Origin: Parcubacteria group bacterium
GTDB lineage: Bacteria > Patescibacteriota > Patescibacteriia > Magasanikbacterales > GCA-002688135
Direction: 5' to 3'
Length of the DNA stretch: 64,000 bases
NCBI GenBank assembly: GCA_002688135.1
Contig: NZCD01000031.1
Coordinates: forward strand, 4,544 to 68,543
Shown: positions 25,143-61,726 of the stretch, in pieces
Numbering within the stretch: position 1 is the first letter of the stretch
Layout of the letters: every line of letters begins with the position of its first letter
The notes under the pieces: model-generated
Database searches by the model: none
What the model saw: the letters and a program-made list of their open reading frames with translations, nothing else
What the model was told of the DNA's origin: nothing
Position numbers and translations under genes: made by a program

Positions 25143-26609
25143 ATGGATACACAATGCTACGACATAATGAATCAACAGGAGGAGAAGCATTGGTGGTTTC
25201 GCGCCAAGGCAGATATTGTAATTCGATTATTAGAAAAAAATATCGGTCCACTTATAGGTAAAAAGATTTTGGATGTTGGATGCGGCACGGGGTACATGTT
25301 ACAAAGACTCACTGATAAAGGCGCAGTAGTCTATGGAATAGACCCCAGCTGCAGCGCAGTTGGATATGCAAAGAAAAAATCTAACTCAACAGTGGTATTG
25401 GGAGAAGGAGAATCAATTCCATTTCCATCAAACTCATTTGATGTGGTGTGCGCATTAGATGTATTGGAACACCGCGAAAATGACAAAAAAGCTATAGAAG
25501 AAATCAAGCGAGTTTTGAAACCAAATGGATATGCACTCATAACAGTTCCTGCGTTACAATCACTTTGGACAAAGCAAGACGAGCGACTACATCACCATCG
25601 TAGATACGCAAAAGATGAGTTGCGAGATATTATTCAACCGCTCGGAGAAATTCACAAAATAAGTTATTACAATTCATTTTTATTTCCTCCAATCGCCACA
25701 GTAAAAATTGCAAAAAGATTCATCCCATCACTCGATACAAAAGATGAAGTGGACATGACACCAAAAGGATGGATCAATAATGCGTTATATAAAATATTCT
25801 CATCAGAAAAGCACCTCATCACTCGCATGTCGCTCCCAATCGGAGTTTCATTGCTTTCGCTAAGTCAATATTGCCCAAATCAAGAAAATCAGCTACCATG
25901 GCAACTTATGAAAGTTTCAATAATCATTCCGTGTTACAACGAAAAAAAGACAATTCGCGAGATTGTCTCTCGTGTAAAAGCATCTCCAATTTCAGAAGAA
26001 AAGGAGATTATTATTGTTGACGATTTCTCAACAGATGGAACGCGAGACATTTTGGCAGAAATAGAAAATGAGGGAGTCACTGTCGCATACCAAAAAGAAA
26101 ACCAAGGAAAAGGTGCGGCACTTCGCGCGGGATTTGCAAAAGCAACGGGAGATGTATGTATCATTCAAGATGCAGATTTAGAATATAATCCTGATGAATA
26201 CAATCGACTGCTTGATCCTATTCGTGATGGCAACGCAGATGTAGTTTATGGATCAAGATTTGTTGGTTCTGATGCTCATCGTGTTTTATACTATTGGCAT
26301 TCAATAGGAAATAAATTTCTAACATGGATGTCCAACATGTTCACAAATGTGAACCTAACTGATATGGAAACATGCTACAAAGTATTCAAAACACCAATCA
26401 TAAAAGAAATCCTACCACACTTAAAATCCGACAGATTTGGATTTGAACCAGAAGTCACTGCGCGTCTTGCTCGTCGACGAGTCCGCATGTACGAAGTTGG
26501 AATTTCATATCAAGGGCGAACATACGAAGAAGGAAAAAAGATCGGATGGTGGGATGGAGTAAAAGCGATTTTTTCAATTTTCTACTTCAACGTCATAGAT
26601 AGAAAGTGA
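25143..26609 (+). CDS. Bifunctional class-I SAM methyltransferase (N) - GT2 glycosyltransferase (C) fusion
   Basis: N-terminal [11 protein letters not shown] (motif I) and [12 protein letters not shown] (post-II). The C-terminal half carries [25 protein letters not shown] and QDADLEY (DxD), the motifs of DPM1/GtrB-like GT2 enzymes. Confidence 0.75.
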
Positions 26610-26642
26610 CACGCAGTGTCATCCCGGCGCAGGCCGGGATCC
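26606..26642. repeat. Family-C element, half copy (GTGTCATCCCGGC-gcag-GCCGGGATCC)
   Basis: Hairpin TCCCGGC/GCCGGGA with a tetraloop plus a GGATCC site, starting at the stop codon of the upstream gene. Confidence 0.65.
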
Positions 26643-26648
26643 AGTATT

Positions 26649-28841
26649 ATGAATAATAAGATTCCGTGTTCAGTCACGATTCTCACACTAAACAATGAAG
26701 ATACGATTAGACAGTGCCTCGACTCTGTCTCTTTTTGTGATGACATTATCGTACTGGATGGAAACTCTACAGATAAAACAGTTGAGATCGCAAAGGAGTT
26801 TGGAGCACGTATATACCCCCAAGTTGAAGGGCCACATGCAAATATAGCGATTCAGAACTTCACACAGATGCGCGTGAAATCATTTAACCTCGCAAAAAAC
26901 GACTGGGTATTTTATGTTGATTCAGATGAGTATATTGATGAAGACTTGAAAGAAGAAATTCAAAAACTCGTACAAGACAATGACAAAAATATAGTAGGAC
27001 GATTCCGTCGCATTGCAATCGTGGAAGGAAAGAAAATCGACAAAGCATATTTCTATCCAGAATTTGCAGATCGTCTCATAAACAGAAAAGCCGGAATTCA
27101 TTGGAAGCCAGGATCGCGCGTACATGAATCTTTAGTCTTTCCAGAAGGAGCTGAAAAGAAAGAATTAAAAGGAGAACTGTTTTCATATTGGCCAGATTTA
27201 GAAAAATGCAAAAAGAAGGACAAACATTATTTGAAATTGGCACGGGAAAAATTTATTGATGCCGCACACAAAACAAAATGGACAGATTTTTTGAGAGGAT
27301 TATGGAAGAATACACTCCGAGCAAAAAAAGTGTTCGCTCTTGCGCTGTGGCTTCCGCTACGATATCGAGACGAAAATGTCCTCCCATTTCGTTATCATAT
27401 GAGATTTTTTTGGTACAACCTGATCCATGCCTGGCATCCTGTAAAATTTAAAGCACTCATTGTAGCATCATGGAAACGACTTCCCAAAATGCTCAAAACA
27501 ATCATGATGGCTGCACTAGTAATTAGAGTAGTATTATTTGCAGTCCTTCTCATCACACAAGGACAATCAAGTTTTGTATATGGACCAAACGGTGATGCAG
27601 TAGAATTCGTCACAATCGCAGAAAACATAAAAAATCACGGAGAATTTTCATTATCAGAAAGTGAGCCATTTTTAGCCAATGACTTCAGAACACCCGGAAT
27701 GCCAGCATTCCTATTGCTCACCGGCGGCGCGCATGGAGCATACTGGCCAGGAGTAGTCGTTCAGATCCTCGCATCATTGGCGCTAATTTTAATGATCTAC
27801 TTTTTCACAAAAAGATACTTCAATGAAAACATCGCATTCATCGCAGCCGGCCTCGCAGCACTCGAACCAAACATGTGGTACTGGCCAACACAGTTAATCG
27901 GAGAATCACTTTTTACAGTTTTCCTATTTGGTGCAATATATTGCTTCGTAGATTATTTAGAATCCAAAAGAATGGGTGTATTGATCGGATACGCAATCCT
28001 ATTAGCAATCGCAACATACTTAAGACAAATATCATATCCACTAATTTTCCTTCTGCCGCTCGTCGGATTATTGAGCATTAACAAACAACGATTCACAAAA
28101 ATGGCAATCGCCGTCATGATGCCGCTCGTTCTTCTCGCACCATGGTTCTACAGAAACCATGTCGTGCTCGGAGATTTCACATACGGTTCATCATTCGCAG
28201 TTCGTGGAAGCGTAGGAAAATACGTGGAAAGCTACACACAAAAGAAATTCCAAAAGCCACCAATAGAAGTATATGAAGAATTGCAAAATGTTTCAGGAGA
28301 AGATGCAGCAGGCGCTATGATGGGAGTAGCACTCAAATCACTAGCAAAAGATCCGCTTGCATATATTGGAATCGGAGCAACAACTCTCGTACCATTTTTC
28401 GCATCAGATGGTTGGTTCACTATCGCAAAATCTGTAGAGCCAACATTTGAAATCGGAGCATTCGACAAAACATGGCTGGGAGAACCGGGAGCCTTCGAAA
28501 CATTCGTTTCAAATTATGTTCAATCTGGCGGAATCGTATTTCTCATCGCAAAAGCACTATATGCATTATTGACGCTCGCAATCTTATTCGGTTTACTCAT
28601 AGCATTGAAAGATAAGCAAAGCAGAAAGTTAGTGCTGTTACTTTTTCTTGTAATATTATATTTCGCTGCAGCATCGGGACTCGGCAGCTATGCAAGATTC
28701 CGCTATCCTATTCAGCCAATACTATTCATTTTCGCTGCAATTTTTCTAGCTCGATACAGCAGGCTGTCATCCCAAGCCAATAGGCTGTCATCCCGAGCCA
28801 ATAGTCTGTCATCCCGAGCGAAGTCGAGGGATCCCTCTTAA
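26649..28841 (+). CDS. GT2 glycosyltransferase domain fused to a C-terminal polytopic membrane domain (GT-C/ArnT-like?)
   Basis: N-terminal MNNKIPCSVTILTLNNEDTI...YVDSDE is GT2 with a DxD motif. About 12 TM helices follow. The track start (26616) lies inside element C1, so the ATG at 26649 was chosen. The last ~25 aa (LSSQANRLSSRANSLSSRAKSRDPS) are encoded by tandem family-C repeat units. Confidence 0.6.
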   Translation: MNNKIPCSVTILTLNNEDTIRQCLDSVSFCDDIIVLDGNSTDKTVEIAKEFGARIYPQVEGPHANIAIQNFTQMRVKSFNLAKNDWVFYVDSDEYIDEDLKEEIQKLVQDNDKNIVGRFRRIAIVEGKKIDKAYFYPEFADRLINRKAGIHWKPGSRVHESLVFPEGAEKKELKGELFSYWPDLEKCKKKDKHYLKLAREKFIDAAHKTKWTDFLRGLWKNTLRAKKVFALALWLPLRYRDENVLPFRYHMRFFWYNLIHAWHPVKFKALIVASWKRLPKMLKTIMMAALVIRVVLFAVLLITQGQSSFVYGPNGDAVEFVTIAENIKNHGEFSLSESEPFLANDFRTPGMPAFLLLTGGAHGAYWPGVVVQILASLALILMIYFFTKRYFNENIAFIAAGLAALEPNMWYWPTQLIGESLFTVFLFGAIYCFVDYLESKRMGVLIGYAILLAIATYLRQISYPLIFLLPLVGLLSINKQRFTKMAIAVMMPLVLLAPWFYRNHVVLGDFTYGSSFAVRGSVGKYVESYTQKKFQKPPIEVYEELQNVSGEDAAGAMMGVALKSLAKDPLAYIGIGATTLVPFFASDGWFTIAKSVEPTFEIGAFDKTWLGEPGAFETFVSNYVQSGGIVFLIAKALYALLTLAILFGLLIALKDKQSRKLVLLLFLVILYFAAASGLGSYARFRYPIQPILFIFAAIFLARYSRLSSQANRLSSRANSLSSRAKSRDPS
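28762..28837. repeat. Family-C element, tandem variant (3x GGCTGTCATCCCRAGCCAATA units ending ..CGAAGTCGAGGGATCCCTC)
   Basis: Three direct repeats of a ~21-nt unit carrying the TGTCATCCC core; they form the 3' end of the upstream CDS. Confidence 0.6.
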
Positions 28842-28845
28842 CAAT

Positions 28846-29535
28846 ATGAAAAACATAAGTTTCATCATCCCCGCATACAACGAAGAAAAATCAATTCGAA
28901 CTGCGATTGAGGAGGTTTTGAAATACGCTGATGAAAATTTAGACACATGCGAAGTAATCGTAGTTGATGATGGGAGCGCAGATGGAACCGCGACATACGC
29001 GTCAGCTTATCCAGATCAGCGAGTAAAACTAATCAAACACAAAACAAATAAAGGAAAAGGCGCGGCAGTAAAAACAGGAGTTGATGCAGCGACGGGGGAA
29101 TGGATTATTTTTCTTGATGCTGATCTTTCAACTCATCCGAGAGATGTCGAAACTCTCAAACCATTCGCACACACACACGACATCATGATCGGCTCACGTG
29201 CACTCCCAGAATCAAACCTCACCAAACGACAACCAAAACGAAGAGAATTACAAGGGCGATTATTCAACAAAGTAATTAAAAAATTCCTAGGACTTCCTTT
29301 TGAGGACACGCAATGCGGATTCAAAGCATTTCACAAAAAAACAAAACACATCTTTTCTGCTCTCCAAACAGACGGCTGGATCTTCGATGTAGAACTCTTA
29401 AAATTCGCACAAAAAAATGGATACTCCATAAAAGAAGTGCCCATCACCTGGCAGGATGATCCGGATTCTCGGGTGAGATCATCTCATGCCATCCAAATCC
29501 TCCGCGACCTCTACAACGCAAAACGCAGAATATAA
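28846..29535 (+). CDS. GT2 polyprenyl-phosphate glycosyltransferase (DPM1/GtrB/ArnC-like)
   Basis: ISFIIPAYNEEKSI, VVDDGSADGT and LDADLS (DxD) motifs; 229 aa. Confidence 0.8.
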   Translation: MKNISFIIPAYNEEKSIRTAIEEVLKYADENLDTCEVIVVDDGSADGTATYASAYPDQRVKLIKHKTNKGKGAAVKTGVDAATGEWIIFLDADLSTHPRDVETLKPFAHTHDIMIGSRALPESNLTKRQPKRRELQGRLFNKVIKKFLGLPFEDTQCGFKAFHKKTKHIFSALQTDGWIFDVELLKFAQKNGYSIKEVPITWQDDPDSRVRSSHAIQILRDLYNAKRRI

Positions 29536-29557
29536 AAAAACCGCGTACGCGGTTTTT
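29535..29557. terminator. Bidirectional terminator AAAAAACCGCGTACGCGGTTTTT between convergent genes
   Basis: 6-bp GC stem with an A-run and a T-run on either side, immediately after the stop at 29535. Confidence 0.75.
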
Positions 29558-29562
29558 GTGAA

Positions 29563-30123: not shown

Positions 30124-30154
30124 AGGCTAGCAGAATTTGGGATGTATGTCAAGA

Positions 30155-31617: not shown

Positions 31618-31686
31618 TGTCATCCCGGCGAAGGCCGGGATCCATGCTGATTAGCAAGATGGATCCCGGCCTTCGCCGGGATGACA
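31618..31686. repeat. Family-C element, full palindrome (TGTCATCCCGGCGAAGGCCGGGATCC - 17 nt - GGATCCCGGCCTTCGCCGGGATGACA)
   Basis: Perfect 26-bp inverted arms, each itself a hairpin with a GAAG loop. Creates spurious ORFs on both strands. Confidence 0.8.
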
Positions 31687-32721: not shown

Positions 32722-32817
32722 AGTGGGCTATTTTAGGCATATTCACCCTGCATGTCAAAAGGTTGCTTTTCGCACAATGTCATGATACGATACGAATCAA
32801 TAATTTCATATAAATCT

Positions 32818-33369
32818 ATGGAAAAACCAGCATACAAAACGCTATCAAAAGAGGTGTTTTTCAAAACGCCGTGGACGACATTCATGCACAATAAATTCGC
32901 CATGCCAAACGGCAAAGAGGGCAATTATTGGTATGTACACACAAAAGGATCATCATTTGTGATTCCAGTACTACAAGACGGACGAATCCTCTTGGGACAT
33001 CAATACAGATATCTCACAGACCGAATGTCATACGAATTTGCTGGCGGAAGTGTAAATGAAGATAAGACATATGAAGAAGCAGCACGACAAGAATTAGAAG
33101 AAGAGTTGGGATACACCGCACAAAACATAAAAGAGGTTGGCGAGTTTTGTCCGATGAATGGTGTAACAGATGAAATCTGCAAAGTGTACGTTGCGACAGG
33201 AATTGAAAAGACAGCACAAAATTTGGAAGAGACAGAACAGATCGAAGAACTCACATTTTCACCAGAAGAGTTTGATAGAATGATTGCAGAGGGAAAGATG
33301 GATGATGGCATGACACTGGCCGCTTGGGCACTCGCACGACCACATTTAGGAGTAACTTGTAAGGAATAA
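32818..33369 (+). CDS. Nudix hydrolase (sugar-nucleotide / ADP-ribose pyrophosphatase-like)
   Basis: Nudix box GGSVNEDKTYEEAARQELEEELG matches Gx5Ex7REUxEExGU. The track start (32752) was trimmed to the MEKPAYKTL ATG. Confidence 0.8.
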   Translation: MEKPAYKTLSKEVFFKTPWTTFMHNKFAMPNGKEGNYWYVHTKGSSFVIPVLQDGRILLGHQYRYLTDRMSYEFAGGSVNEDKTYEEAARQELEEELGYTAQNIKEVGEFCPMNGVTDEICKVYVATGIEKTAQNLEETEQIEELTFSPEEFDRMIAEGKMDDGMTLAAWALARPHLGVTCKE

Positions 33370-33380: not shown

Positions 33381-33449
33381 TGTCATTCCGGCGAAGGCCG
33401 GAATCCATCTCGATAGTCAGCATGGATCCCGGCCTTCGCCGGGATGACA
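33381..33449. repeat. Family-C element, full palindrome variant (TGTCATTCCGGCGAAGGCCGGAATCC ... GGATCCCGGCCTTCGCCGGGATGACA)
   Basis: Inverted arms with 2 mismatches and a 17-nt spacer, between the Nudix and LbH genes. Confidence 0.8.
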
Positions 33450-34269: not shown

Positions 34270-34914
34270 ATGCACACAAAAGAACAACTCGAAGAAATCT
34301 ACGAACAAGTCCCGGCAACATACTGGGACGATTCGTATGCTAACAATCGAATGCAGAAACTGTATTATGATATGCGATTCAAACATGTGAATCGTATGCT
34401 CGCAGACGTTCCAGAAGCGGGAAGAGTTTTGGATGTTGGATGCTCATCAGGATTTTCGTTGAGCCACTACTCCAAGGCGCGCCCTGATATTCATTATGCT
34501 GGAGCAGATGTTGCGGAACATCATATTGCATATGCAAAACAAGAGCGTCCGCAGTTTACATTTGCGCATGCTCCAGCAGAAGCTCTACCATTTGAGGAAA
34601 ACACATTCGACGCAGTCACGATGCTGGATGTAATAGAGCATGTTGTTGATTTGGATAAAACTCTTTCAGAAGTAAAACGTGTATTAAAACCAGGAGGAAG
34701 TTTCATTGTATTTGTTGTTGAAGAACATCATGTGGTATTCCAAGTGATTTGGTGGTTCTGGTTAAAAACAAAAGGAAAAGTTTGGGAGGAAGCACATTTG
34801 CGAGATTATGATAAGAAGAGTTTGATTGCTGATTTGGAAAAAGCTGGATTTACAATTGATGAATTTAAAAGATCGCATGGGACGACATGTCTCATTGTGA
34901 AGGCAATATGTTGA
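34270..34914 (+). CDS. Class-I SAM-dependent methyltransferase
   Basis: VLDVGCSSGFS (motif I) and LKPGGSFIVFV. Confidence 0.75.
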   Translation: MHTKEQLEEIYEQVPATYWDDSYANNRMQKLYYDMRFKHVNRMLADVPEAGRVLDVGCSSGFSLSHYSKARPDIHYAGADVAEHHIAYAKQERPQFTFAHAPAEALPFEENTFDAVTMLDVIEHVVDLDKTLSEVKRVLKPGGSFIVFVVEEHHVVFQVIWWFWLKTKGKVWEEAHLRDYDKKSLIADLEKAGFTIDEFKRSHGTTCLIVKAIC

Positions 34915-37517
34915 CGATCGTCATTCCTTGTTACAACGAAGAAGATAATATTCCAGGATTAAAGACCATTCTAGAACCAGAGCTCAAAGCTCTGGATCTT
35001 GATTATGAGATTGTGGCGATCGATGACGGAAGCATAGATAGTACGCAGGCACGCTTATATGAAAGTGATGTAGAAAATTTACGAGTCGTTCAGCATTTCA
35101 AAAATGGGGGAGTCGGCGCTGCAATCAGAACAGGAATTGCACACGCGCAAGGAGATCAAATTGTATTGCTGGATTCTGACATGACATTTCATCCAAAGTA
35201 TATTAAAGATTTAAAAGAGAGATACGACCAAGGTGATGTAGAAGCTGTGATAGGATCGCATGGGTTGGCTGGATATGCAGATGACATTCCAAAATGGCGT
35301 GTAGGGGTAAGCAAGGCAGCGAATCTTGCATACTCGCTTGCGGCTGGAACACGAGTCCATGGAATAAGTTCCATTTTCAGAATAATGGATGCAGAAGCAG
35401 CAAGACGAGTAAAACTCGAAACAACAAGTTTTGATACTCCAACAGAATTATTTTTCAAAATGCATTTCGATGGATCACGATATGTGGAAATCCCAACACC
35501 AATCGGCAATCGTGAATTCGGATCATCAAAATTAGATTACAAAAAAGAAATCCCTCGCCACATGAAATTACTTTCGAGAGTATTTGGGTGGCGACTCAAG
35601 TCTAAAAAAAAAGCGATAAGTGCCAAAGGCACTTGTCGTCCCGGCGAAGGCCGGGATCCAGTGAGGAAACCACATAAGCTTGCATGGCTGGTAGCGCTCG
35701 CAATTGTTGCGCTCTATGCACTCCCACACGTTCTCATCCCTCAATGGCAAGCAGCTGCTGGAATTGAAGGATATCACCCATACTCGCTAAATGTTCCTAT
35801 ATTAGATGACGTAGCAGCATACGGAACAAGAATGCGCGAGGTGTTTGATGGACACATCGCGGACGGAGATGCATATCTCGCAGAATATAAAAATCATGAC
35901 ACAGCTTGGGGAAATATCGCACTAGCTTTTATATTAGGATTACCTGGACTGATCTTAGGATTAACTGATCCCACAAACTTATTCCTATTTTATTCAGTCA
36001 TATTTCCAGCCCTAGCTTTTTTCGTACTATACAAACTCTCATACAAAATACTCGGAAAGCGAGAAATTCCAGCGGTACTGCTCGCACTTGTCACAACGAT
36101 ATTCCCCAACATCCTCATTGCAATCCGCGCAGGATTATCTAACCCTTCGCTCTTCCACCCATTTCAATTTGTCGCCACCGCATTTGATCCAGCACTCACC
36201 CGAAGCTTCATACCATCACCAGGAATAATAATTTGGTTTGGATTCATGTATATGCTGTATCGTGTGGTGGTCGAAAAAAGAAAACAAGATATCATGAAGG
36301 CAGGCCTGCTCTTAGGCGCGCTATTTTATGTCTACTTCTACTATGCTGCATTTGCAGCATTCACAACAATCATAATCACCGCACTACTGTATTTCAGAAA
36401 ACGAGCGCATGAAACAATGTTGGTGGGCATAACCGGTCTTATTGTCGCATTACCATATTTCATCAAAACATTTAGTTTACAGGCACAACCATACTATCAC
36501 GCAATGTCAGAGCGAGTTGGGTTAGTATTCGGAAGAACATTTGATCAGTCATCTTACAAAACCATTCTCATCACATTATTTGTGATTGCTATCGCCGGTA
36601 TTGTCATCAAAAACAAAAATAAAGTAACGTTTCTTGCAGGAGCTTTATTGCCAATTGGAATCGTATTAAATCTTCAATTGTTACTCGGATTCAACCCACA
36701 ACCAGATCATTGGGGATCTCGCGTAAACGTTTACATGCTTGTCTGGACAATTGGTGTCGTTACATACGCTATCTACCACAAAATAAAACCAGATAAGAAT
36801 TGGAAAAAAGCGGAGCGACTTTCCATGCTTGCGGTGATCTTACTATTGTTGGGAAGTGCATTTCACATACATCTCAACGAAAGAAAAGTAACTGCAGCTC
36901 GCTATACAATCGCGCCAGATATTCAGGAATCATTTGCATGGATCAATGAGAATGTAGATAAAGATAGCGTGATAATCTCACCATCAACCAGAACAAGTAC
37001 CTACACACCATTCTTCACACATGCAAATGTATATGTACCCCTCGCATGCTACACCGTCGCAGATCACGATGAAGTTATAGAAAGATACAACTACACTCGT
37101 CATCTATTTCGCGTGACACAGGAAATGACAAACAACACTCTCAAAGGTTCATACAACGAGTTCGAAAATCCGGTGCGTGCAATTGATTTGGATAATATTT
37201 ATACGGTATTTTGTGATACATTAAGAACACGCTACGGAAAGGACTACACAAATTCAGGAAGTGAAAGAGTATTGCCAGAAAAAGAAGAGAAGCAAATTCA
37301 GGATAGCTACGACAGTATACAGCTTTCAGGAATAGTAAAGCTCCCACATCAAGCAAACTACATCTATAATGGCCCGCATGAAAAATTCCTGGGAAATTTC
37401 AATCCAGATGAATGGGATAACATCGAACAAGTATATAGCGAAGGCCAAGTAGACATCTATAAAATCCTGGATCCCGCCGAAGTTTATGCTGGCGACAGCG
37501 AGGCAGTGCGGGAATGA
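34887..37517 (+). CDS. GT2 glycosyltransferase (DPM1-like) fused to a large polytopic membrane domain with a C-terminal extracytoplasmic domain
   Basis: N-terminal LTIVIPCYNEEDNI, VAIDDGSIDST and LDSDMT. After aa ~250 the linker AISAKGTCRPGEGRDPV is encoded by a family-C half element. About 13 TM helices and a ~250-aa soluble tail follow. The membrane part is paralogous to the 42373 protein. The start may instead be 34908 (MLTIVIP). Confidence 0.65.
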   Translation: MSHCEGNMLTIVIPCYNEEDNIPGLKTILEPELKALDLDYEIVAIDDGSIDSTQARLYESDVENLRVVQHFKNGGVGAAIRTGIAHAQGDQIVLLDSDMTFHPKYIKDLKERYDQGDVEAVIGSHGLAGYADDIPKWRVGVSKAANLAYSLAAGTRVHGISSIFRIMDAEAARRVKLETTSFDTPTELFFKMHFDGSRYVEIPTPIGNREFGSSKLDYKKEIPRHMKLLSRVFGWRLKSKKKAISAKGTCRPGEGRDPVRKPHKLAWLVALAIVALYALPHVLIPQWQAAAGIEGYHPYSLNVPILDDVAAYGTRMREVFDGHIADGDAYLAEYKNHDTAWGNIALAFILGLPGLILGLTDPTNLFLFYSVIFPALAFFVLYKLSYKILGKREIPAVLLALVTTIFPNILIAIRAGLSNPSLFHPFQFVATAFDPALTRSFIPSPGIIIWFGFMYMLYRVVVEKRKQDIMKAGLLLGALFYVYFYYAAFAAFTTIIITALLYFRKRAHETMLVGITGLIVALPYFIKTFSLQAQPYYHAMSERVGLVFGRTFDQSSYKTILITLFVIAIAGIVIKNKNKVTFLAGALLPIGIVLNLQLLLGFNPQPDHWGSRVNVYMLVWTIGVVTYAIYHKIKPDKNWKKAERLSMLAVILLLLGSAFHIHLNERKVTAARYTIAPDIQESFAWINENVDKDSVIISPSTRTSTYTPFFTHANVYVPLACYTVADHDEVIERYNYTRHLFRVTQEMTNNTLKGSYNEFENPVRAIDLDNIYTVFCDTLRTRYGKDYTNSGSERVLPEKEEKQIQDSYDSIQLSGIVKLPHQANYIYNGPHEKFLGNFNPDEWDNIEQVYSEGQVDIYKILDPAEVYAGDSEAVRE
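35634..35659. repeat. Family-C half element (TTGTCGTCCCGGCGAAGGCCGGGATCC) lying in-frame inside a CDS
   Basis: Exact GGCGAAGGCCGGGATCC core at the GT2/membrane domain junction of the 34887..37517 ORF. Confidence 0.65.
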
Positions 37518-37520
37518 CAT

Positions 37521-41236: not shown

Positions 41237-42179
41237 CGAGCAATGCCCAGTATGCGCATCGACTGAAAGAACAGTTGTTGCAACCATCGGTGATTTAAAT
41301 AAACCGCTCACCAACGTGATTTGCGAATCATGTGGTTTGATTTTTATTACCCCGCGAAAACAAATCGCAGAAGTAGAAGAATTCCATGTAGAAGATTTTT
41401 TGAAAAATAAAGGATACGAAGAAGCTGATCACTTTGAACACAAATTGAGTGCATCAGAAATTCCAACGAAAAAACGCATCGCAGAAGTTATCATTCCTCA
41501 TATGCCAGGCGGGGGAACGGTGTTAGATGTTGGGTGTGGAATTGGAACGCTCGTAAGTATTTTGCTGGACCGAGGGTACAAGGCTGAAGGGATTGAATTA
41601 GCACGAATCGAGATTGAAGCAGCAAAGAAGTTCTATGATGTAGACCTATATTTGGGAAGCTTAAGAAAATACGCTACAGAACATCCGGAAAAGAAGTTCG
41701 ATATGATCGTTCTGCATCACACACTCGAACACATGACAGACCCACAAGGCGAACTACACTTCATGAAATCAATGCTATCTGAAAATGGAAAAATCTATAT
41801 CGGCGTACCAAATGTAACAAACATGAAAAAAAGACCAGAAGTCTATTTTGAATCAGGTCATGTTGTAACATACTCGCCGCGCTCGCTAGCTCACGCACTG
41901 GAAGCACAAGGACTATATCCATCATACTTCTCAACCAAGGCGGTGTATCCAGGAGGAATGGGTGTGATTGCTGGAACTAAGCCCGCAGACAACACAGCAT
42001 TATTACAAAAAGAAATGAAAGGTATGGGTCATCCAAAAGATGTGAAATATTACATCAAGAAAAAGGGTGCTCAATTTGCTACAGCTCGTGTCTGTCGAGA
42101 TATTGGATTATTCTTCATTCCGAAAAAAGCTCGAGTCAAAATAGGTCGGGCAATTTCAAATTGGATGAAAAATAGATAG
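41226..42179 (+). CDS. Class-I SAM methyltransferase with N-terminal Cys4 zinc-ribbon
   Basis: CPVCAS...CESCG zinc ribbon; VLDVGCGIGTL motif I; MLSENGKIYIGVP. Paralog of the 49228 gene. Confidence 0.75.
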   Translation: MENSEQCPVCASTERTVVATIGDLNKPLTNVICESCGLIFITPRKQIAEVEEFHVEDFLKNKGYEEADHFEHKLSASEIPTKKRIAEVIIPHMPGGGTVLDVGCGIGTLVSILLDRGYKAEGIELARIEIEAAKKFYDVDLYLGSLRKYATEHPEKKFDMIVLHHTLEHMTDPQGELHFMKSMLSENGKIYIGVPNVTNMKKRPEVYFESGHVVTYSPRSLAHALEAQGLYPSYFSTKAVYPGGMGVIAGTKPADNTALLQKEMKGMGHPKDVKYYIKKKGAQFATARVCRDIGLFFIPKKARVKIGRAISNWMKNR

Positions 42180-42180: not shown

Positions 42181-42367
42181 CCACGAATGGTACAAATCAA
42201 ATACAAATCTACAAATCTCCGCTAAGTCACTAGGAGTGTCATCCCGGGCTTGATCCGGGATCCAAAGTTCGCAGCTGGATCCCGGATCAAGCCCGGGATG
42301 ACAGTCGGTCTGGTTGTTGCTAGACGAGCATTTGTAGATTTGTAGAAAATTTGTATTATTCGAGGGA
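42181..42367. mobile_element. Family-B MITE-like element (~187 bp) with ~37-bp terminal inverted repeats CCACGAATGGTACAAATCAAATACAAATCTACAAATC; carries a nested family-C palindrome
   Basis: Left TIR at 42181-42217 and right TIR at 42329-42367 (GCATTTGTAGATTTGTAGAAAATTTGTATTATTCGAGGG). The inner palindrome spans 42237-42303. Confidence 0.7.
42237..42303. repeat. Family-C-related perfect palindrome (TGTCATCCCGGGCTTGATCCGGGATCC ... GGATCCCGGATCAAGCCCGGGATGACA) nested in MITE B1
   Basis: 27-bp arms around a 13-nt spacer. Shares the TGTCATCCCGG / GGATCC cores with family C. Confidence 0.75.
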
Positions 42368-45160: not shown

Positions 45161-45381
45161 CCCACGAATGGTACAAATCATTTACAAATCTACAAATCCT
45201 CGATTAGCAACAGCCCGACCAACTGTCATTGCGAGCGTTTTAGCTAAGCAATCTGATTCCACAAACTGGATTCTATCGACGGAGCCTGCACTGGAGTAAA
45301 GTGATAGGGACTCCAGAATGACGCACTAAGTAGTTAGGCGGAAATTTGTAGATTTGTAGTAGATTTGTAATATTCGTGGGA
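45161..45381. mobile_element. Family-B MITE-like element (~220 bp) with the same TIRs; inner part carries the TGTCATTGCGAGCG motif
   Basis: TIRs CCCACGAATGGTACAAATCATTTACAAATCTACAAATC / GGAAATTTGTAGATTTGTAGTAGATTTGTAATATTCGTGGG. Confidence 0.7.
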
Positions 45382-46358: not shown

Positions 46359-46560
46359 CCCGCGAATATTACAAATCAACTACAAATCTACAAATCCTTG
46401 ACTAGTAGCTCTGTAAATAGGCTGTCATTGCGAGCGCTTTAGCGTGGCAATCTGAAGCCAGATTGAGATTGCCACGCTAAAGCGCTCGCAATGACGTGTT
46501 GGTCGAGTGGTTGCTAAACGAGCATTTGTAGATTTGTAAAAGATTTGTACTATTCGTGGG
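46359..46560. mobile_element. Family-B MITE-like element (~200 bp); inner part is a TGTCATTGCGAGCGCTTTAGCGTGGCAATC ... palindrome
   Basis: TIRs CCCGCGAATATTACAAATCAACTACAAATCTACAAATC / GCATTTGTAGATTTGTAAAAGATTTGTACTATTCGTGGG. Inner 28-bp perfect inverted arms at 46424-46496. Confidence 0.7.
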
Positions 46561-51720: not shown

Positions 51721-53163
51721 ATGAAGACTATATTCATGACCATTTCTAGGGGTGGAACCGCACGAAATCTCTTGCAAAGTGAGGTATTTAGTGCGCTCAA
51801 AGAGTCTGGAAACAAACTGGTTATTATTGCACCTGCATCAGAGGATGGGACTTTTCAGAAACTCTGTGATGCTCCAAATATACATCTTGAAAAAATGGTT
51901 GAGCTGCCGTGGCGATGGGCAGATCGAGTTTTGGTAGGGATTCACAAGGGACTAATTTACAATAAGAGCACGATGTTCCGTGATAAGTTCGGAATTTACG
52001 ATCCTAAAGAGGGGAGCATGTTCAAGTACTGGATGCGAAAAATTTTTATTGCGCCATTTTCAAAATCAAAATCTCTCAAAAGATTTGCTAGAAAATTAGA
52101 TAAAGTAATAGCACCCGCACGACACTACGAAGAAATTTTTTCAAAACACAAACCAGACGTTCTTTTTTCGACAAGCATGATTGAAGATCAAGAAGTTGAA
52201 ATCATGAAACAAGCGGAAGCTCATGGTGTGCCAATAATCGCAATGCCAAAAACATGGGACAATCCATCAAAAATAAATCTTCGAGTAAAACCGAATAAGA
52301 TAATTGTGTGGGGAGAATATTCAAGAGATGAGGTGGTAAAATATTCGGCAATAGACGAAAAAGATATTGAGGTGTGCGGAATTCCACAATTCGACACATA
52401 TCGAAATATCGATCTGATTGATACACGCGAAGAATTTTGCACAAAATGGGGATTTGATCCAAACAAAAAAATTATTGTATTTGGATCTGAAGGCCGCATC
52501 ACACCACAAGATAAAGACATCGCCAGTCAGATTGCCGCTTGGGTAAAAAATGGTGGGATTGAAAATTCGCAATTGTTCATACGGCCTCACTTCATGTATC
52601 CGGAAGATCCCAAAAAATTCAAAAACATCGAAGCACAAGAAAATGTAAAAGTTGATAATTCTTGGAATCGAATTGATGGGTTTCGTGACAATTGGGATTA
52701 TTCAATGAAACAAATTTCACATTTCGCAAATCTGATGGTTCATGCGGATCTAATGATAACAACAGGCTCAACACTTTCAATAGACGCAGCTGCAACTGAC
52801 ACGCCAGTCATCAATATATATTTTGACACGCCAGATCCAAAACCATTTAACGAATCTGTGAGACGCTGGTACACATCAGAACATTACTCTCATGTGCTTG
52901 AAACTGGAGCTGTAAGTTTGGCACATTCAATGGAAGAGCTGAAAGAATACACAAAACGATATCTCAAAACACCATCTATCAGACAACAGCAAAGAAAAAA
53001 CTTGATTGAAAAATTTGGATACAAAAACGACGGAAAATCCGCAGAAAGAATCGCAGCTTCTGTTCTTGCGTTTATTGGCGAAGAACCTAAATCTCACACA
53101 CACCATGATTCTGTATTAATAACTAAGAGTGAAAAACAAGAACAGAAAGTAATGAGTAATTAG
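51721..53163 (+). CDS. GT-B-like transferase with RPH motif; TagB/TagF (CDP-glycerol glycerophosphotransferase)-like. Alternative reading: CMP-sugar (sialyl/Kdo)-transferase-like
   Basis: Motif order FGSEGRI ... IRPHFMYPED ... LMITTGSTLSIDAAATDTPVINIYFD mirrors the TagF-family order YAPTWR ... K/RPHP ... ISDYSS..D..LL.KPII. Paralog of the 56029 gene. The last codons lie in element A3. Confidence 0.4.
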   Translation: MKTIFMTISRGGTARNLLQSEVFSALKESGNKLVIIAPASEDGTFQKLCDAPNIHLEKMVELPWRWADRVLVGIHKGLIYNKSTMFRDKFGIYDPKEGSMFKYWMRKIFIAPFSKSKSLKRFARKLDKVIAPARHYEEIFSKHKPDVLFSTSMIEDQEVEIMKQAEAHGVPIIAMPKTWDNPSKINLRVKPNKIIVWGEYSRDEVVKYSAIDEKDIEVCGIPQFDTYRNIDLIDTREEFCTKWGFDPNKKIIVFGSEGRITPQDKDIASQIAAWVKNGGIENSQLFIRPHFMYPEDPKKFKNIEAQENVKVDNSWNRIDGFRDNWDYSMKQISHFANLMVHADLMITTGSTLSIDAAATDTPVINIYFDTPDPKPFNESVRRWYTSEHYSHVLETGAVSLAHSMEELKEYTKRYLKTPSIRQQQRKNLIEKFGYKNDGKSAERIAASVLAFIGEEPKSHTHHDSVLITKSEKQEQKVMSN

Positions 53164-53238
53164 TAATGAGTAAAGCGGTCGGCGAAGCCGACAAAAAGCC
53201 ACAGGCTTTACCTCATTACTAATTACTCATTACGCGCT
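53148..53238. repeat. Family-A hairpin element (AGTAATGAGTAATTAGTAATGAGTAAAGC / GCTTTACCTCATTACTAATTACTCATTAC) with nested GTCGGC-gaa-GCCGAC hairpin
   Basis: ~28-bp near-perfect arms. The inner 57 nt are near-identical (3 mismatches) to the copy at 62575. Overlaps the stop codon of the 51721 gene. Confidence 0.75.
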
Positions 53239-55874: not shown

Positions 55875-55989
55875 ATAGAAGAGCTGCTTTTGAGAACGCA
55901 GTGCTCAAAAGCGTTACTATAAAACGAAAAAGGTTTGGTGGGAATAATATAGAATGGCTGCGATGGTATAGGAGGATCAATACTAATAC

Positions 55990-56017
55990 GGGATCCCTCC
56001 TATTGTCGGGATGACGT
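55990..56017. repeat. Family-C half element (GGGATCCCTCCTATTGTCGGGATGACG)
   Basis: GGATCC plus the GGGATGAC core, preceded by an ATAGGAGG...CCTCCTAT short inverted repeat. The track ORF start at 56011 lies inside it. Confidence 0.5.
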
Positions 56018-56028
56018 GGAACGAAGTT

Positions 56029-57402
56029 ATGAAAAAAATCTTCATGATGTTATCGCGCGGATTCGTCGCGCGCAACATGCTTCAAACTGAAGTAAAAAAA
56101 ACAATACTCGAGCAAGAGGATGTACAACTCATCCTCTTTGTTCCATCTAACATTCCTGATCACTTTCACAAAGAGGCAAATCATCCGCGCATCACAACAA
56201 TAGAATGTGAGGATGTGCAGTATGGTCCATTGCGTCGTAGATTCGCGCGATCAATGCAAAAGATGGTGTATTCAAAAACTGCGCAATATCTATTGCATTA
56301 TGGTGGCCGTCCATCAAAGAAGAATATGTCGTGGCCGTTTTTTATTGTTGCACATGGATTCTTCAAATTACTCTCATCAATGAAATTCTTTATTCCAGTC
56401 TGGAGATGGCTGGAGATCGCGACATGGCCAGACAAAATATATGATGAGCATTTCAAAGAACATAAACCAGATTTGGTAATTGCGACAAGTCTTAAAACAA
56501 AACGAGATGCAGCTATTTTGAAATCTGCAAAACGATTCAATGTGAAACCGATTGGTATCACACGAAGCTGGGATAATTTGGATCGAATGTTATTGCAAGT
56601 TGTGCCAGACAAGTTGGTAGTACAAAATGAGGCAATGAAAGAAATTGCAATAAAAGATCATGCGATAGATGAGAAAACTATTTTTGTTGCAGGATTCCCG
56701 CAGTTTGATTTGTATGATAATTCAGAAACATTCGACGACTACGAAACATTTCTAGAAAAAAGAAATTTCACGCCAGATCGAAAAGTCATATTCTTTGGTT
56801 CTGAAGGAGCATGGGCGCCGTATGGATACATGATTGCACAGGAGCTGATCGATATGGCAAACAAGGATGAATTTGTGCATCCAGTTCAGGTGATTGTGAG
56901 ACCGCACTTTTCAGATATTAACTTTGACAAAAAAAATGTATATGACGTAGTTGAGGGTAGACCGCTCACATATTACGACAATTACTTCCGTGTCTCAAAA
57001 ATGTTTACCGACAAATGGGACCCTTCATGGGAGGAAATGACAAACCTCGCAAACCAACTCAAGCATTCAGATATGCTCATCACATACGCCTCGACATTGT
57101 CACTAGAAGCAGCTATACTCGATACACCAATAATCAATATCGATTATCAGGCAAGACAAGAACCAAAAGGTGGACCATTCATGGGAACATTCTACCAATC
57201 CAGTCACTATTCTAGAATGGCAAACTCTGGAGCAATCAAATTTGCGCATTCACGAAATGAATTGAAAGCGCTCGTAAATCGATATCTTGAAAATCCAGAA
57301 TACGAAAAAACAGAACGAAAAAAATTCGCAAACTGGCTTGCGCCTTACACAGGAGAGGCTGGAAAGAGACTTGGCGACTTTATTATTCAACAGCTGTCGT
57401 AA
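56029..57402 (+). CDS. GT-B-like transferase with RPH motif, paralog of the 51721 protein (TagF-like)
   Basis: FFGSEGAW ... VIVRPHFSD ... MLITYASTLSLEAAILDTPIINIDYQ. The N-terminus MKKIFMMLSRGFVARNMLQTEV parallels MKTIFMTISRGGTARNLLQSEV of the paralog. Confidence 0.4.
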   Translation: MKKIFMMLSRGFVARNMLQTEVKKTILEQEDVQLILFVPSNIPDHFHKEANHPRITTIECEDVQYGPLRRRFARSMQKMVYSKTAQYLLHYGGRPSKKNMSWPFFIVAHGFFKLLSSMKFFIPVWRWLEIATWPDKIYDEHFKEHKPDLVIATSLKTKRDAAILKSAKRFNVKPIGITRSWDNLDRMLLQVVPDKLVVQNEAMKEIAIKDHAIDEKTIFVAGFPQFDLYDNSETFDDYETFLEKRNFTPDRKVIFFGSEGAWAPYGYMIAQELIDMANKDEFVHPVQVIVRPHFSDINFDKKNVYDVVEGRPLTYYDNYFRVSKMFTDKWDPSWEEMTNLANQLKHSDMLITYASTLSLEAAILDTPIINIDYQARQEPKGGPFMGTFYQSSHYSRMANSGAIKFAHSRNELKALVNRYLENPEYEKTERKKFANWLAPYTGEAGKRLGDFIIQQLS

Positions 57403-57470
57403 TGAGTAATGAGTAATGCGGGCTATCGCCTTGCGCGATCGCTTTACGCTTTACTCATTACGCATTACGA
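57397..57470. repeat. Family-A hairpin element (CGTAATGAGTAATGAGTAATGCG / CGCTTTACTCATTACGCATTACG)
   Basis: Inverted GTAATGAG arms overlapping the stop codon of the 56029 gene. Inner GC-rich palindrome GCGATCGC. Confidence 0.65.
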
Positions 57471-57476
57471 ATCTAT

Positions 57477-58601: not shown

Positions 58602-58637
58602 TATTAACTACACTGTGCGAAGCACACAGGAGAAAAT

Positions 58638-59615: not shown

Positions 59616-59780
59616 TCTTTGTGATAAAACTTTCAAGTTTCGGGGTATAATCGATGAACACTTGATGAGATATAAGCCGTAGCTTAGTCGAAGAAAGTTG
59701 AGTCGATTATAACCGAAAATTGAATTTTTTAGCCGAAGACTTATATGGAAAGAGCCCTCATAAAAGGAAAAGGTAGTCGT

Positions 59781-60389
59781 ATGATTAAGGAGAGAGTAAA
59801 GCTTCATCCTACTGCTGAAATCGGCGAAGGTGTCGAGATTGGTGATGGTACTAAAATTTGGGCGCAAGCACAGCTCGGCGCAGGCGCTCGACTGGGTGCT
59901 AATTGCGTAGTTGGAAAAGGAGCATACATTGATCGCGGAGTAAGAGTTGGAAATAATGTTATGATTCACAATTATGCATTATTGTACCGGCCGCTTACGG
60001 TGGAAGACAATGTGTTCATCGGACCACAAGTTGCAAATGCAAACGACCCAACCCCTATCGCAAACGTAATTCGCGACACTGCTAAGGATCCGGGTACGAC
60101 TTTCAAAAAAGGATGTCGTATCGGCATGGGCGCAACACTTGCACCAAATCTGACCATTGGCGAATACGCACAAGTAGACATGCGAGCACTCGTAACTCGA
60201 GATGTTCCGCCTCATGCTATTGTGAGAGGTGTGCCTGCAAAGATTGTCGGCTTCGCATGCTTTTGTGGAAAGAAGTTGGGGAAACATCCTGAAATTCAAA
60301 TGGGCGCAAGCATCCATCATAGATGTGCTGACAGCAGCTGTGCTAAAACAGTAACAATCCCACTTGAAAACTACAAAAGAATGAAATAA
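59781..60389 (+). CDS. Hexapeptide-repeat (LbH) acetyl/acyltransferase (PglD/NeuD/WbbJ-like)
   Basis: Hexapeptide repeats IGDGTKIWAQAQLGAGARLGANCVVGKGAYIDRGVRVGNNVMI. The track start (59745) was trimmed to MIKERVKL. Confidence 0.65.
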   Translation: MIKERVKLHPTAEIGEGVEIGDGTKIWAQAQLGAGARLGANCVVGKGAYIDRGVRVGNNVMIHNYALLYRPLTVEDNVFIGPQVANANDPTPIANVIRDTAKDPGTTFKKGCRIGMGATLAPNLTIGEYAQVDMRALVTRDVPPHAIVRGVPAKIVGFACFCGKKLGKHPEIQMGASIHHRCADSSCAKTVTIPLENYKRMK

Positions 60390-60444
60390 AATACGAGCAA
60401 CTCAATAGAGTTGCTTTTTACTACTCACTACAAACTAAACAGAT

Positions 60445-61602
60445 ATGACCTTAGAAGGAGTCACTACGAAAGTAGCAGATAGAACAAAGAGTGTTTCTTT
60501 GGTGAAAGATTGGATTCTACATTCCGGAATCCAAAACCAAAGCGAAAATAAAAAATTACACGGTGCATTTAATGCGTGGCATGACATCACAAACAACACC
60601 TATCCATACATGTATTCAGAAATCACAGGATATGGATTATCAACTCTCGCGCACATCGCAGCAGAATTTGGTGATAATGAATTGATCAGACAAAAAATTA
60701 CAGATGCGCATGTGTGGCTGCGGGATGTTGCATTGCATGAAAGTGGAGGAGTGAGAACACGAGATTACTATCCCGGAAGCTCTGCATACAACGAACACTT
60801 CGATTTCAAAAATGAAACACTCTATACATTCGATACCGGAATGGTATTGAATGGATTGATGTCAGCATACAATCTAACAAAAGACGAAACACTTTTAGAG
60901 ACGGCAAAAAAGAATGCAGACTTTCTGCTAAAAGCACAAAAAGAAGATGGATCAATCTACGCATATTGGGAAGCTCATAAAGATGAATGGGTAGACAGAC
61001 CAGAAAAATGGTCGTCACAAAGCGGGGCTTATCATGCAAAATGTGCTATCGGATTATATGCATTGGGGAAAGTTGCAGAAAACAAAAGCTGCATAGAAGC
61101 AGCGCTGAAGCTGTGTGAATACGCACTTACACTCCAACATGAAGACGGACGATTCGTTTCATTCCGCGAAACAACAAACACAGAGCTTCATCCACACACA
61201 TACACAATTGAGGGATTGATGTATGTTGCGCAGCAAGAAAATAATCAAAAATACAAAGAGGCTTGTAATCGAGCAATAGAATGGAGTTTCACCTTGCAGC
61301 GATCCAAAGGTGGAGTATCAAGGAGTGTGCACAATAACACTCCAAACGATAATGAAAGGGTAGACGTACTCGCACAAACACTGCGGATGGGAGCTGTCTT
61401 AAATCAATCAGAAGAAAAGCTTCAAAAACTAGAAAAGCAATTATCCTCATACCAAACAGAGGGCTTCATATACGGTTTTGATAATGATGGAAACAAGTTA
61501 TCTCACACAAATGCATGGGTTTCAATGTTCGCCATTCAGGCATTTTCATGCAGAAAAACGCAGGAAAAAGGCGAAAAAATCGATCTGATCAATCTCATCT
61601 AA
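60445..61602 (+). CDS. Hypothetical protein, probably (alpha/alpha)6-toroid fold (N-acylglucosamine 2-epimerase / six-hairpin glycosidase superfamily-like)
   Basis: 385 aa of helix-rich repeats of ~50 aa with aromatic/Gly turns (SEITGYGLSTL, DTGMVLNGLMSAY, TIEGLMYVAQ). No NeuB or TIM-barrel motifs. Low confidence. Confidence 0.3.
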   Translation: MTLEGVTTKVADRTKSVSLVKDWILHSGIQNQSENKKLHGAFNAWHDITNNTYPYMYSEITGYGLSTLAHIAAEFGDNELIRQKITDAHVWLRDVALHESGGVRTRDYYPGSSAYNEHFDFKNETLYTFDTGMVLNGLMSAYNLTKDETLLETAKKNADFLLKAQKEDGSIYAYWEAHKDEWVDRPEKWSSQSGAYHAKCAIGLYALGKVAENKSCIEAALKLCEYALTLQHEDGRFVSFRETTNTELHPHTYTIEGLMYVAQQENNQKYKEACNRAIEWSFTLQRSKGGVSRSVHNNTPNDNERVDVLAQTLRMGAVLNQSEEKLQKLEKQLSSYQTEGFIYGFDNDGNKLSHTNAWVSMFAIQAFSCRKTQEKGEKIDLINLI

Positions 61603-61627
61603 CGAGAGGTATCGCAACCTTCTTAAG

Positions 61628-61726
61628 TGTCATCCCAAGCGCTTATTCTAAAAAATATTTTTCTCTGGAGCCTGCCCTCGCGGATGCGGGGGAGGGATCC
61701 CTCGACTAAAACGCTCGGGATGACAG
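61628..61726. repeat. Family-C element variant (GTGTCATCCCAAGCG ... GAGGGATCCCTCGACTAAAACGCTCGGGATGACAG)
   Basis: Termini TGTCATCCC / GGGATGACA with an internal GGATCC. The right half is the reverse complement of the C2 terminal unit. Confidence 0.6.

Follow-up and report, generated by a model that had tools for sequence, protein, structure and literature searches.

GGATCC-containing hairpins in a polysaccharide gene cluster of a marine Parcubacteria genome are probably CGTC-tagged REP elements

The surface-sugar gene cluster of a marine Parcubacteria bacterium is interspersed with short palindromic hairpins, most of which contain the sequence GGATCC, and the question raised by this locus is what kind of element these hairpins are and how they reached their present positions. 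The window analyzed here is a stretch of 64,000 nucleotides (assembly GCA_002688135.1, contig NZCD01000031.1, positions 4,544 to 68,543) within a 72.5-kb contig of a Tara Oceans metagenome-assembled genome (MAG; locus tags CMI52_, proteins MAG11575-MAG11617, ~41% G+C), and all comparisons within the genome refer to this contig. A sequence-only reading of the window had described the hairpins as resembling repetitive extragenic palindromes (REP) or miniature inverted-repeat transposable elements (MITE), with no associated transposase, and had proposed that they act at the RNA level or are targets of a restriction-modification (R-M) system. The present analysis indicates that they are probably members of the superfamily of CGTC-tagged REPs, the group that corresponds to the Neisseria dRS3/NTS repeats and the Ssn-related motifs (SRM). 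The type of element is already known; what is new is its occurrence in a marine Parcubacteria MAG.

A locus-by-locus reading yields a consensus unit, TGTC + ATCCCGGC-GAAG-GCCGGGAT + CCAG, with GCAG as a second loop and CCAT as a second tail. The unit is an oriented module of 28-29 nt that consists of an unpaired tag, (C/T)GTC, an 8-bp stem opening with A-T and then T-A, 4 or 5 loop nucleotides, and a tail, CCA(G), that is likewise unpaired. All strong window units carry TGTC as the tag, and CGTC is found in the copy at 55989 as well as in the orthologue of copy 26617 in a related genome; the tails of all strong units are CCAG, CCAT, or CCAA, and the stems and loops are either ATCCCGGC/GCCGGGAT with GAAG or GCAG, or ATCCCGGG/TCCGGGAT with a CTTGA loop. 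Most units are arranged as head-to-head (HH) dimers with the tags outside, of which there are four (31618, 33381, 42237, and 46424). The CGTC-tagged REPs were described as repeats with a CGTC tag (often TGTC; variant CCTC), AT-initial stems of 8-9 bp, loops of 4-5 nt, and a CCA tail, in which HH dimers predominate, mostly between unidirectional open reading frames (ORFs), with some intragenic units and some dimers nested in larger palindromes (Di Nocera, De Gregorio and Rocco, BMC Genomics 2013; PMC3733652). They fall into two families, CGTC-1 (4-nt loop) and CGTC-2 (5-nt loop), include repeats of Neisseria, Rickettsia, Wolbachia, and Coxiella, and are repeated genome-wide in tens to thousands of units (PMC3733652). 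All of the sequence features of this group are found in the window: TGTC as a variant tag, a stem of 8 bp that begins with AT, loops of 4 or 5 nt, a tail fitting CCA, HH dimers (some of them likewise nested in larger palindromes), location between ORFs, intragenic copies, and the lack of a flanking transposase; the decayed copies 28807, 55989, and 61693 depart from the characteristic stem and loop. In contrast to the window, the genomes in that survey came from cultured members of five phyla, mostly Alphaproteobacteria, and included no representative of the candidate phyla radiation (CPR) (PMC3733652).

The correspondence extends to positions outside the stem. The NTS repeat of N. meningitidis is bound and cut by SsnA, a 94-aa GIY-YIG nuclease (Chenal et al., Nat Commun 2025; PMC11893778), which acts on NTS only as single-stranded DNA (ssDNA) and in one orientation, cutting a few nucleotides upstream of the tag, with neither RNA nor double-stranded DNA serving as substrate; binding depends critically on the C that follows the palindrome, and cleavage on the three nucleotides that precede it (PMC11893778). 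In alignment A1, which includes the window units, exactly these positions, GTC just 5' of the palindrome and C just 3' of it, are invariant. The published SRM pattern, HGTCWYN(0-2)YYVSBRHN(0-5)WNVSBRGN(0-2)RNCYNB (Chenal 2025), is matched by six window units versus a mean of 0.06 in 100 dinucleotide shuffles, and 35634 and 42237(+) are each one position off. The window unit is identical to the NTS CGTCATTCCCGCGMAVGCGGGAATCYRG at 23 of 28 positions; the five differences, one at the first tag position and four that make up two compensatory stem pairs, are all allowed by the SRM pattern. The window units share with NTS/SRM the 28-nt oriented layout and, like NTS in N. meningitidis, cluster at surface-structure genes; they differ in the stem, ATCCCGGC versus ATTCCCGC in NTS, and in the host, a CPR MAG of ~41% G+C. 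The loop sequence varies across the family, and GAAG does not conform to GNRA, so the GNRA-like tetraloop suggested earlier cannot be retained.

In the window, there are 6 occurrences of the hairpin core TCCCGGCGAAGGCCGGGA with up to 2 mismatches (0.00 in shuffles), 11 of the terminus TGTCATCCCGG with up to 1 mismatch (0.52), and 14 of GGGATCC (3.2). All eight loci of the sequence-only reading carry the sequences described, and a covariance model recovered each of these copies together with a new degenerate unit, 37466-37519 (-), which contains the only GGGATCC site (37469) beyond the listed copies; with 45222-45256 and 46424-46495 also added, the total rises from eight loci to 11 (Table 1). 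Altogether the covariance-model search of the 72.5-kb contig yields about 15 units, all between 26.6 and 61.7 kb of the window, whereas the first 26.6 kb and the two flanks of the contig contain none; the window gave no match in Rfam and tRNA scans. Folded as ssDNA, the doublets have energies of -31 to -42 kcal/mol, with z from -8.9 to -13.5; energies of about -10 kcal/mol (z -2.8 to -3.8) were obtained for the intact single units, and shuffles fold as well as the degenerate copies do. Two perfect palindromes of ~68 bp had been claimed; there are instead three such dimers (31618, 33381, and 42237), with perfectly complementary arms in 31618 and 42237 and non-palindromic centers of 13-17 nt. 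The tandem was confirmed, with 2.8 copies (Table 1).

Hairpins of this layout are widespread. A scan for GTCATCCCGG-N(4-9)-CCGGGATCC with one genome per species returned, among the matches listed, Alpha-, Beta-, and Gammaproteobacteria, CPR lineages, Omnitrophota, and others, and most of the listed matches have an inverted partner 15-50 nt away with a stem that differs by compensatory changes (ATTCCGG/CCGGAAT, ATGCCGG/CCGGCAT, ACCCCGG/CCGGGGT, and ATTGCGG/CCGCAAT, for example). Within the window itself, one unit of the 33381 dimer shows a compensatory change of a C:G to a T:A pair. Covariation was assessed on 34 distinct 28-mers from fetched loci, not selected for their stems, plus four window units: 94.7% of the cells are paired, compared with 17-51% in slid-register controls, and there are 39 double-sided changes versus 10.6 in shuffles (0 of 500 as high). 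More than 120 metagenome contigs, most with a G+C content of 55-69%, contain the exact 28-mer of the window. The units have 64-71% G+C in a marine CPR genome of ~41% G+C and are identical to units of soil Proteobacteria, which argues for either strong sequence constraint or recent horizontal spread.

How the units come and go can be followed in a second genome. The 876-aa protein that joins a GT2 glycosyltransferase to a membrane part, and whose gene (34887 CDS) contains copy 35634 in frame as previously noted, has its closest homologue in P0001, which is 83-85% identical and lacks exactly the 21 residues AISAKGTCRPGEGRDPVRKPH; more distant homologues lack them as well. The contig that encodes P0001 (L249) is syntenic to 24.1-47.1 kb of the window at ~80-86% nucleotide identity, and insertion boundaries were taken from affine-gap global alignment. 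Two of the elements are retained in L249 and the others within the syntenic part are missing from it (Table 1), two of them, both in this same glycosyltransferase gene, with clean empty sites. The 52-nt insertion spans the unit from the GTC tag to the CCAGG tail, with no target duplication; the 60-nt insertion includes additional sequence next to the unit and is flanked by what may be a direct repeat of 5 bp, ATAAG. The empty sites and the insertion boundaries indicate that units are gained or lost as discrete pieces of DNA, and the units that enter genes stay in frame. In the retained doublet at 31618-31686, the center is 95.5% identical to the reverse complement of its L249 counterpart and the loops are GAAG/CTTC versus GCAG/CTGC; at the sequence level, this inversion with a joint loop change points to flipping or to concerted evolution between the inverted arms. 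Given that CGTC repeats lack a dedicated transposase, this two-genome comparison, a rare case of empty-site evidence, bears on how such repeats spread. The Rickettsia palindromic elements (RPEs), with which we compared the window elements by description only, are likewise palindromic repeats translated in frame and end in CGTC (PMC3733652), which parallels the 20 net and 15 residues added to one glycosyltransferase by the 60-nt and 52-nt insertions; RPEs differ in being ~100-150 bp long and Rickettsia-specific.

The gene that carries both insertions has further features of its own. GT2 and the large membrane domain are fused in most homologues of the 34887-37517 protein, and the membrane part is a separate protein in P0004 (618 aa) and P0010 (596 aa); the linker that joins the two parts is variable, and it is here that the 35614 insertion is located. 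Immediately upstream of the tag, the 60-nt insertion holds a second perfect small hairpin, AAGTGCC-AAA-GGCACTT (35617-35633), which together with the adjacent A9 run has a terminator-like score on the minus strand.

The comparison with L249 also bears on the possibility that the hairpins act as RNA, i.e., as transcribed terminators, attenuators, mRNA stabilizers, or RNase processing sites, as some Escherichia coli REPs do. Six of the 11 loci lie in spacers between co-directional genes (++ or --) of what appears to be a single long operon, the dimers would form very stable hairpins (z -9 to -13.5), and many REPs are located downstream of ORFs and are plausibly transcribed (PMC3733652). However, a terminator scan of 26-46 kb reported none of the units, and inspection of 46-62 kb by eye showed no T-runs after the hairpins; three loci contribute coding sequence, and two copies are translated inside a gene. 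Furthermore, single units are found both sense (26617, 28807, 35634, and 45222) and antisense (37466 and 55989) to transcription, the orthologous spacers of L249 lack units without any rearrangement of the genes, and the conserved unpaired tag and tail, which a simple RNA hairpin does not account for, match the determinants of an ssDNA nuclease that binds no RNA. An RNA-level role, as put forward in the sequence-only reading, is decidedly unlikely as an explanation of these elements.

The same reading placed the hairpins in the REP/MITE neighborhood and noted the lack of a transposase, which agrees with the description of CGTC-tagged REPs as repeats without a dedicated transposase (PMC3733652). 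The more specific proposal, that they are classical REP/REPIN elements or MITEs mobilized at their inverted termini by a REP-associated tyrosine transposase (RAYT, of the IS200/IS605 Y1 type) or by another transposase, appears quite improbable. It draws on the REPIN-like architecture of the dimers, on the insertion polymorphism with the possible ATAAG repeat, and on the three composites of ~190-220 bp, in which, according to the alignment of the three copies, outer arms CCCACGAATGGTACAAATCAnnTACAAATCTACAAAT and their complement enclose a tagged hairpin doublet. In the 42181 composite the arms are built on TACAAATC repeats; the cores of the 45161 and 46359 composites represent a separate subtype, GTCATTGCGAGCG...GCAATC, that is also found in unrelated loci and genomes with a CGTC tag and a CCAG tail. 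The composites, with their long outer arms, are similar in architecture to the Coxiella MITE QMITE2 and to the nested CGTC-1 dimers of H. neapolitanus. REP/REPIN-RAYT systems and QMITE2 (PMC5896051) also consist of short hairpins arranged as inverted doublets, sometimes inside a larger element with terminal inverted repeats, and for REP/REPIN-RAYT, too, ssDNA-based mobilization by a small nuclease with a repeat-bracketed gene has been proposed. The difference lies in the tag and in the linked gene: GTAG and HUH Y1 transposases in those systems, (C/T)GTC and a GIY-YIG gene in the family considered here. In addition, the published survey encountered no transposase gene, RAYT or otherwise, with CGTC repeats at its sides (PMC3733652), none is recurrent in 120 motif-selected loci, and none is encoded on the contig; the 52-nt insertion at 37466 has no target duplication, and no parental insertion sequence (IS) was found. 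Direct identity with Coxiella QMITE2/REP was considered as well and rejected: QMITE2 carries a GTAG REP.

The linked gene emerged from all-against-all clustering of the ORFs in these 120 loci. The largest cluster consisted of generic ABC ATPases; no transposase recurred near the motif, and the sole recurrent, positionally linked neighbor was a gene for a GIY-YIG protein of ~95 aa (Pfam PF01541), bracketed by the repeats in 5 loci. Conversely, three of three GIY-YIG homologues picked without reference to the motif are flanked on both sides by covariance-model matches within ~60 bp, the units at the L251 homologue scoring 46-48.5 bits, and SRMs were reported near 71% of ssn homologues (PMC11893778). 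A profile search for Ssn homologues gave at least 8000 candidates; the 120 named matches among those listed are all from Proteobacteria, which says nothing about Parcubacteria. As a separate observation, two of the three examined Ssn-like genes (L250, Methylomarinum vadi, 1501-1791; L253, 1501-1800) are located, with their flanking repeats, inside R-M loci, one between HsdM-like and HsdS-like genes and the other between Eco57I-like and Type_ISP_C genes.

Taken as CGTC-tagged REPs, the window units would be non-autonomous insertions at the DNA level that come and go between related genomes, landing in short spacers between co-directional genes and occasionally in frame in tolerant parts of genes. 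By analogy with the family, a unit in the single-stranded state (incoming transforming DNA, replication forks, or repair) would fold into a hairpin, to which a small Ssn-type nuclease (cd10448) with a single GIY-YIG domain, the product of a gene at another site in the genome, could bind in one orientation. Binding would be specified by the stem together with the C that immediately follows it, cleavage by the GTC tag, and the cut would fall a few nucleotides 5' of the tag. SsnA reduces transformation by NTS-bearing DNA (PMC11893778), and here ssDNA carrying glycan-gene cassettes might be cut at the cassette borders, altering replacement or exchange by recombination. The Ssn enzyme-site pair appears to be the most plausible engine of repeat spread, and RNA hairpins formed by transcribed copies would be a side effect. 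Given that the search could cover only this contig of the genome, the chances that an Ssn enzyme acts on the units in this organism are closer to even. Rather unlikely, in our estimate, is the bolder proposal that Ssn-type motifs mark the borders of glycan cassettes in a CPR bacterium and turn over quickly, as judged from six of eight compared loci that differ from the ~82% identical relative, two in-frame insertions in one glycosyltransferase among them, with the Ssn/SRM pair serving both as an active transposase-independent mobilization system and as a filter on cassette replacement by incoming ssDNA; under that proposal, the exact tag-to-tail extent of the inserted unit would be expected and the repeats would amount to a programmable filter on recombination by which an episymbiotic lineage varies its surface. 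In any case, the window adds a marine CPR genome to the range of a repeat family whose partner enzyme, a site-specific ssDNA nuclease that is of interest to biotechnology, was discovered recently.

Several points weigh against the assignment or its enzymatic part. Folding has deteriorated in three copies (28807, 55989, and 61693), and units of the subtype GTCATTGCGAGCG lie outside the SRM pattern. A profile search of all ORFs of at least 50 aa in the window and both flanks found no Ssn-like GIY-YIG gene on the 72.5-kb contig, with no match better than E 0.09. Neither was a GIY-YIG gene found in the 120 metagenome loci with the exact 28-mer (612 kb) using a hidden Markov model built from six sequences that could miss distant Ssn proteins, which implies that most copies are far from the gene. 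Ssn specificity is set by the stem sequence besides the shape (PMC11893778), and recognition of the ATCCCGGC stem, mobilization of the repeats by Ssn, a biological role outside Neisseria, and natural transformation of this organism are all putative.

Hairpins of this type might also be docking sites for site-specific recombinases, such as phage or IS110-family integrases that use the hairpin as an attachment site. The dRS3 repeat is a reported target of a phage recombinase (PMC11893778), filamentous prophages are located at Neisseria dRS3, REP-like targets have been reported for IS1111 in Coxiella, and an unrelated low-GC metagenome locus (L201) contains an IS-like fragment inside a dimer. Nevertheless, no integrase, IS110-family gene, or prophage is present at any of the 11 loci or on the contig, and docking would be a secondary exploitation that leaves the origin and the conservation of the repeat unexplained, so that this explanation is very improbable. 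At L201 (3588-4181, on a metagenome contig of 38% G+C), a doublet of the exact 28-mer is split by ~540 bp and its palindrome extends 8-9 nt beyond the tags; the insert contains a short ORF that, read from its translation only, resembles a fragment of a DDE transposase.

The presence of GGATCC in most copies had suggested that they are targets of a GGATCC-specific R-M system or chimeric assembly joins at this site, to which we assign an almost negligible probability. GGATCC is not conserved in the family, where sister units have GGAATCC, GGCATCC, or GGGGTCC, and arises as a by-product where GGGAT at the end of the stem adjoins CC of the tail; the 64 kb contain 6 sites outside the elements, against ~10 estimated from base composition, so that GGATCC is neither avoided nor enriched. 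As for an assembly artefact, element 61628 is identical in four independent assemblies and 55990 in two, two copies are conserved at orthologous positions of the diverged relative, and reading frames run through the copies.

The 11 loci are listed in Table 1. Two of them had been placed in the 3' ends of genes, which is correct for 28762 and incorrect for 42237, where the upstream ORF already ends at 42179. The hairpins were also said to generate artefactual ORF starts: the GTG at 26616 (MSSRRRPGS) and the ATG at 33444 (MTRKN) were found as claimed, and the peptide at 31645 is MLISKMDPGLRRDD rather than MLISMDPGLRRDD. For annotation, this means that the repeats, rather than native protein sequence, account for several of the predicted N-termini, for one C-terminal extension, and for an internal segment of 21 residues in glycosyltransferases of the MAG.

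Table 1. Tagged hairpin elements of the window, with covariance-model scores, single-stranded DNA folds, and their state in the syntenic contig L249
Position	Strand	Architecture	Model score	Fold (kcal/mol)	Context	State in L249
26617..26644	+	Single unit TGTCATCCCGGCGCAGGCCGGGATCCAG; TGTC tag, 8-bp stem, GCAG loop, CCAG tail; SRM match	45.3 bits	-9.7, z -3.8	28 of the 39-40 bp separating two co-directional glycosyltransferase genes	Conserved, CGTC tag; CGTCATCCCGGCGCAAGACGGGATCCAG, 2500-2527
28762..28838	+	Three heads in 21-bp tandem GGCTGTCATCCCRAGCCAATA (28761-28819, 2.8 copies, 94% matches, TRF), the last running into degenerate unit CTGTCATCCCGAGCGAAGTCGAGGGATCCCTC (28807-28836)	16.4 bits, E 0.046	No better than shuffles	Codes for last ~26 codons of GT2-PMT_2 gene	Absent; (ACGCTAA)n tandem
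31618..31686	.	HH dimer, 31618-31645 (+) and 31659-31686 (-), 13-nt spacer; both SRM matches	46.4 bits each	-42.4, z -13.5	Between two minus-strand genes	Kept, 6830-6898; center inverted, loops changed in both arms (GCAG/CTGC)
33381..33449	.	HH dimer, 33381-33408 (+, compensatory variant ATTCCGGC...GCCGGAAT) and 33422-33449 (-); both SRM matches	46.3 and 46.4 bits	-31, z -8.9	Between NUDIX and acetyltransferase genes	Absent; unrelated sequence in spacer
35614..35673	+	60-nt in-frame insertion with unit TGTCGTCCCGGCGAAGGCCGGGATCCAG (35634-35661)	43.7 bits		Linker of 876-aa GT2-membrane protein; translates to AISAKGTCRPGEGRDPVRKPH (21-residue segment; 20 residues net)	Absent; clean empty site between AAAAAAAAAG and ATAAATTAGC
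37466..37519	-	Degenerate unit TGTCATTCCCGC-[30 nt]-GCGGGATCCAGG; Neisseria-type stem, expanded loop	16.3 bits, E 0.048	Not significant	Last 15 codons and TGA stop of 34887 CDS (same gene as 35614 insertion)	52 nt (37466-37517) missing, leaving a clean empty site; homologues are 15 residues shorter at the C-terminus
42181..42365	.	Composite palindrome, ~190 bp; outer arms ~36 nt, CCACGAATGGTACAAATCAAATACAAATCTACAAAT and complement (inverted repeats); core HH dimer of 5-nt-loop type, 42237-42265 (+) and 42275-42303 (-), TGTCATCCCGGGCTTGATCCGGGATCCA; minus unit SRM match	23.9 and 28.2 bits	Dimer -39.5, z -12.6	Intergenic	Absent; other sequence in spacer
45161..45380	.	Second composite, same outer arms; core CTGTCATTGCGAGCGTTTTAGCTAAGCAATCTGA (45222-45256, +) and decayed partner ending ...CCAGAATGACG				Absent; different heptamer-tandem palindrome in spacer
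46359..46560	.	Third composite; 33-nt arms, 97% complementary; core HH dimer of GTCATTGCGAGCG subtype, 46424-46456 (+) and 46463-46495 (-)		Dimer -41.2, z -12.8; whole element -69.9, z -16.5		Absent; other sequence in spacer
55989..56016	-	Degenerate single unit CGTCATCCCGACAATAGGAGGGATCCCG; overlaps small palindrome GGAGGATC...GGGATCCCTCC	18.8 bits, E 0.009	Not significant	Spacer before 56011/56032 gene	
61628..61726	.	Composite, 99 bp; left end head only, TGTCATCCCAAGCG; right end degenerate unit 61693-61725 (-), CTGTCATCCCGAGCGTTTTAGTCGAGGGATCCC; interior unrelated G+C-rich hairpin CCCTCGC-GGAT-GCGGGGG	16.1 bits	-23.9, z -4.5		

Next to copy 26617, a palindrome, TGACAC-GCA-GTGTCA (26607-26621), overlaps both the tag of the unit and the stop codon of the upstream gene, and its L249 orthologue is the similar ATGATG-CGAAG-CGTCAT; this palindrome may be what is left of a partner unit that has since been lost.

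The polysaccharide-biosynthesis cluster in which the elements are embedded extends over 25-62 kb and encodes GT2, GT1/GT4, and PMT_2-type transferases, methyltransferases, MBOAT, a deacetylase, a formyltransferase, UDP-GlcNAc 2-epimerases, and cytidylyltransferases. The flanking parts of the contig add four Wzy_C proteins, an ECF (extracytoplasmic function) sigma factor, and further sugar genes, and the annotated window and flanks contain no transposase or integrase. The four Wzy_C-domain proteins are large paralogues (723-880 aa) encoded in a row (window 4526-16192 and the 5' flank of the contig, L127) that adjoins genes for an Invasin/Big_1 protein, the ECF sigma factor, and an HTH_17 protein, an unusual content for a Parcubacteria contig; this region has no tagged hairpins. 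For the ORFs 2921-4525 and 32752-33369, no identical protein is on record.

At the five elements that L249 lacks without a clean empty site (28762, 33381, 42237, 45161, and 46359), the corresponding sites hold other sequence, in four of the five cases a different short-repeat tandem or palindrome. Palindromes built from heptamer tandems are also found in intergenic regions right after stop codons, with (GTAATGA)n in the window (53149-53233 and 57397-57470) and (ACGCTAA)n in L249 (17929-17991, 20870-20970, 21910-21980, and 4640-4670). These may be lineage-specific terminator-like hairpins. The window and L249 use different heptamer units at orthologous spacers, and L249 17929-17991 resembles window 57406-57470 (84.6% identity).

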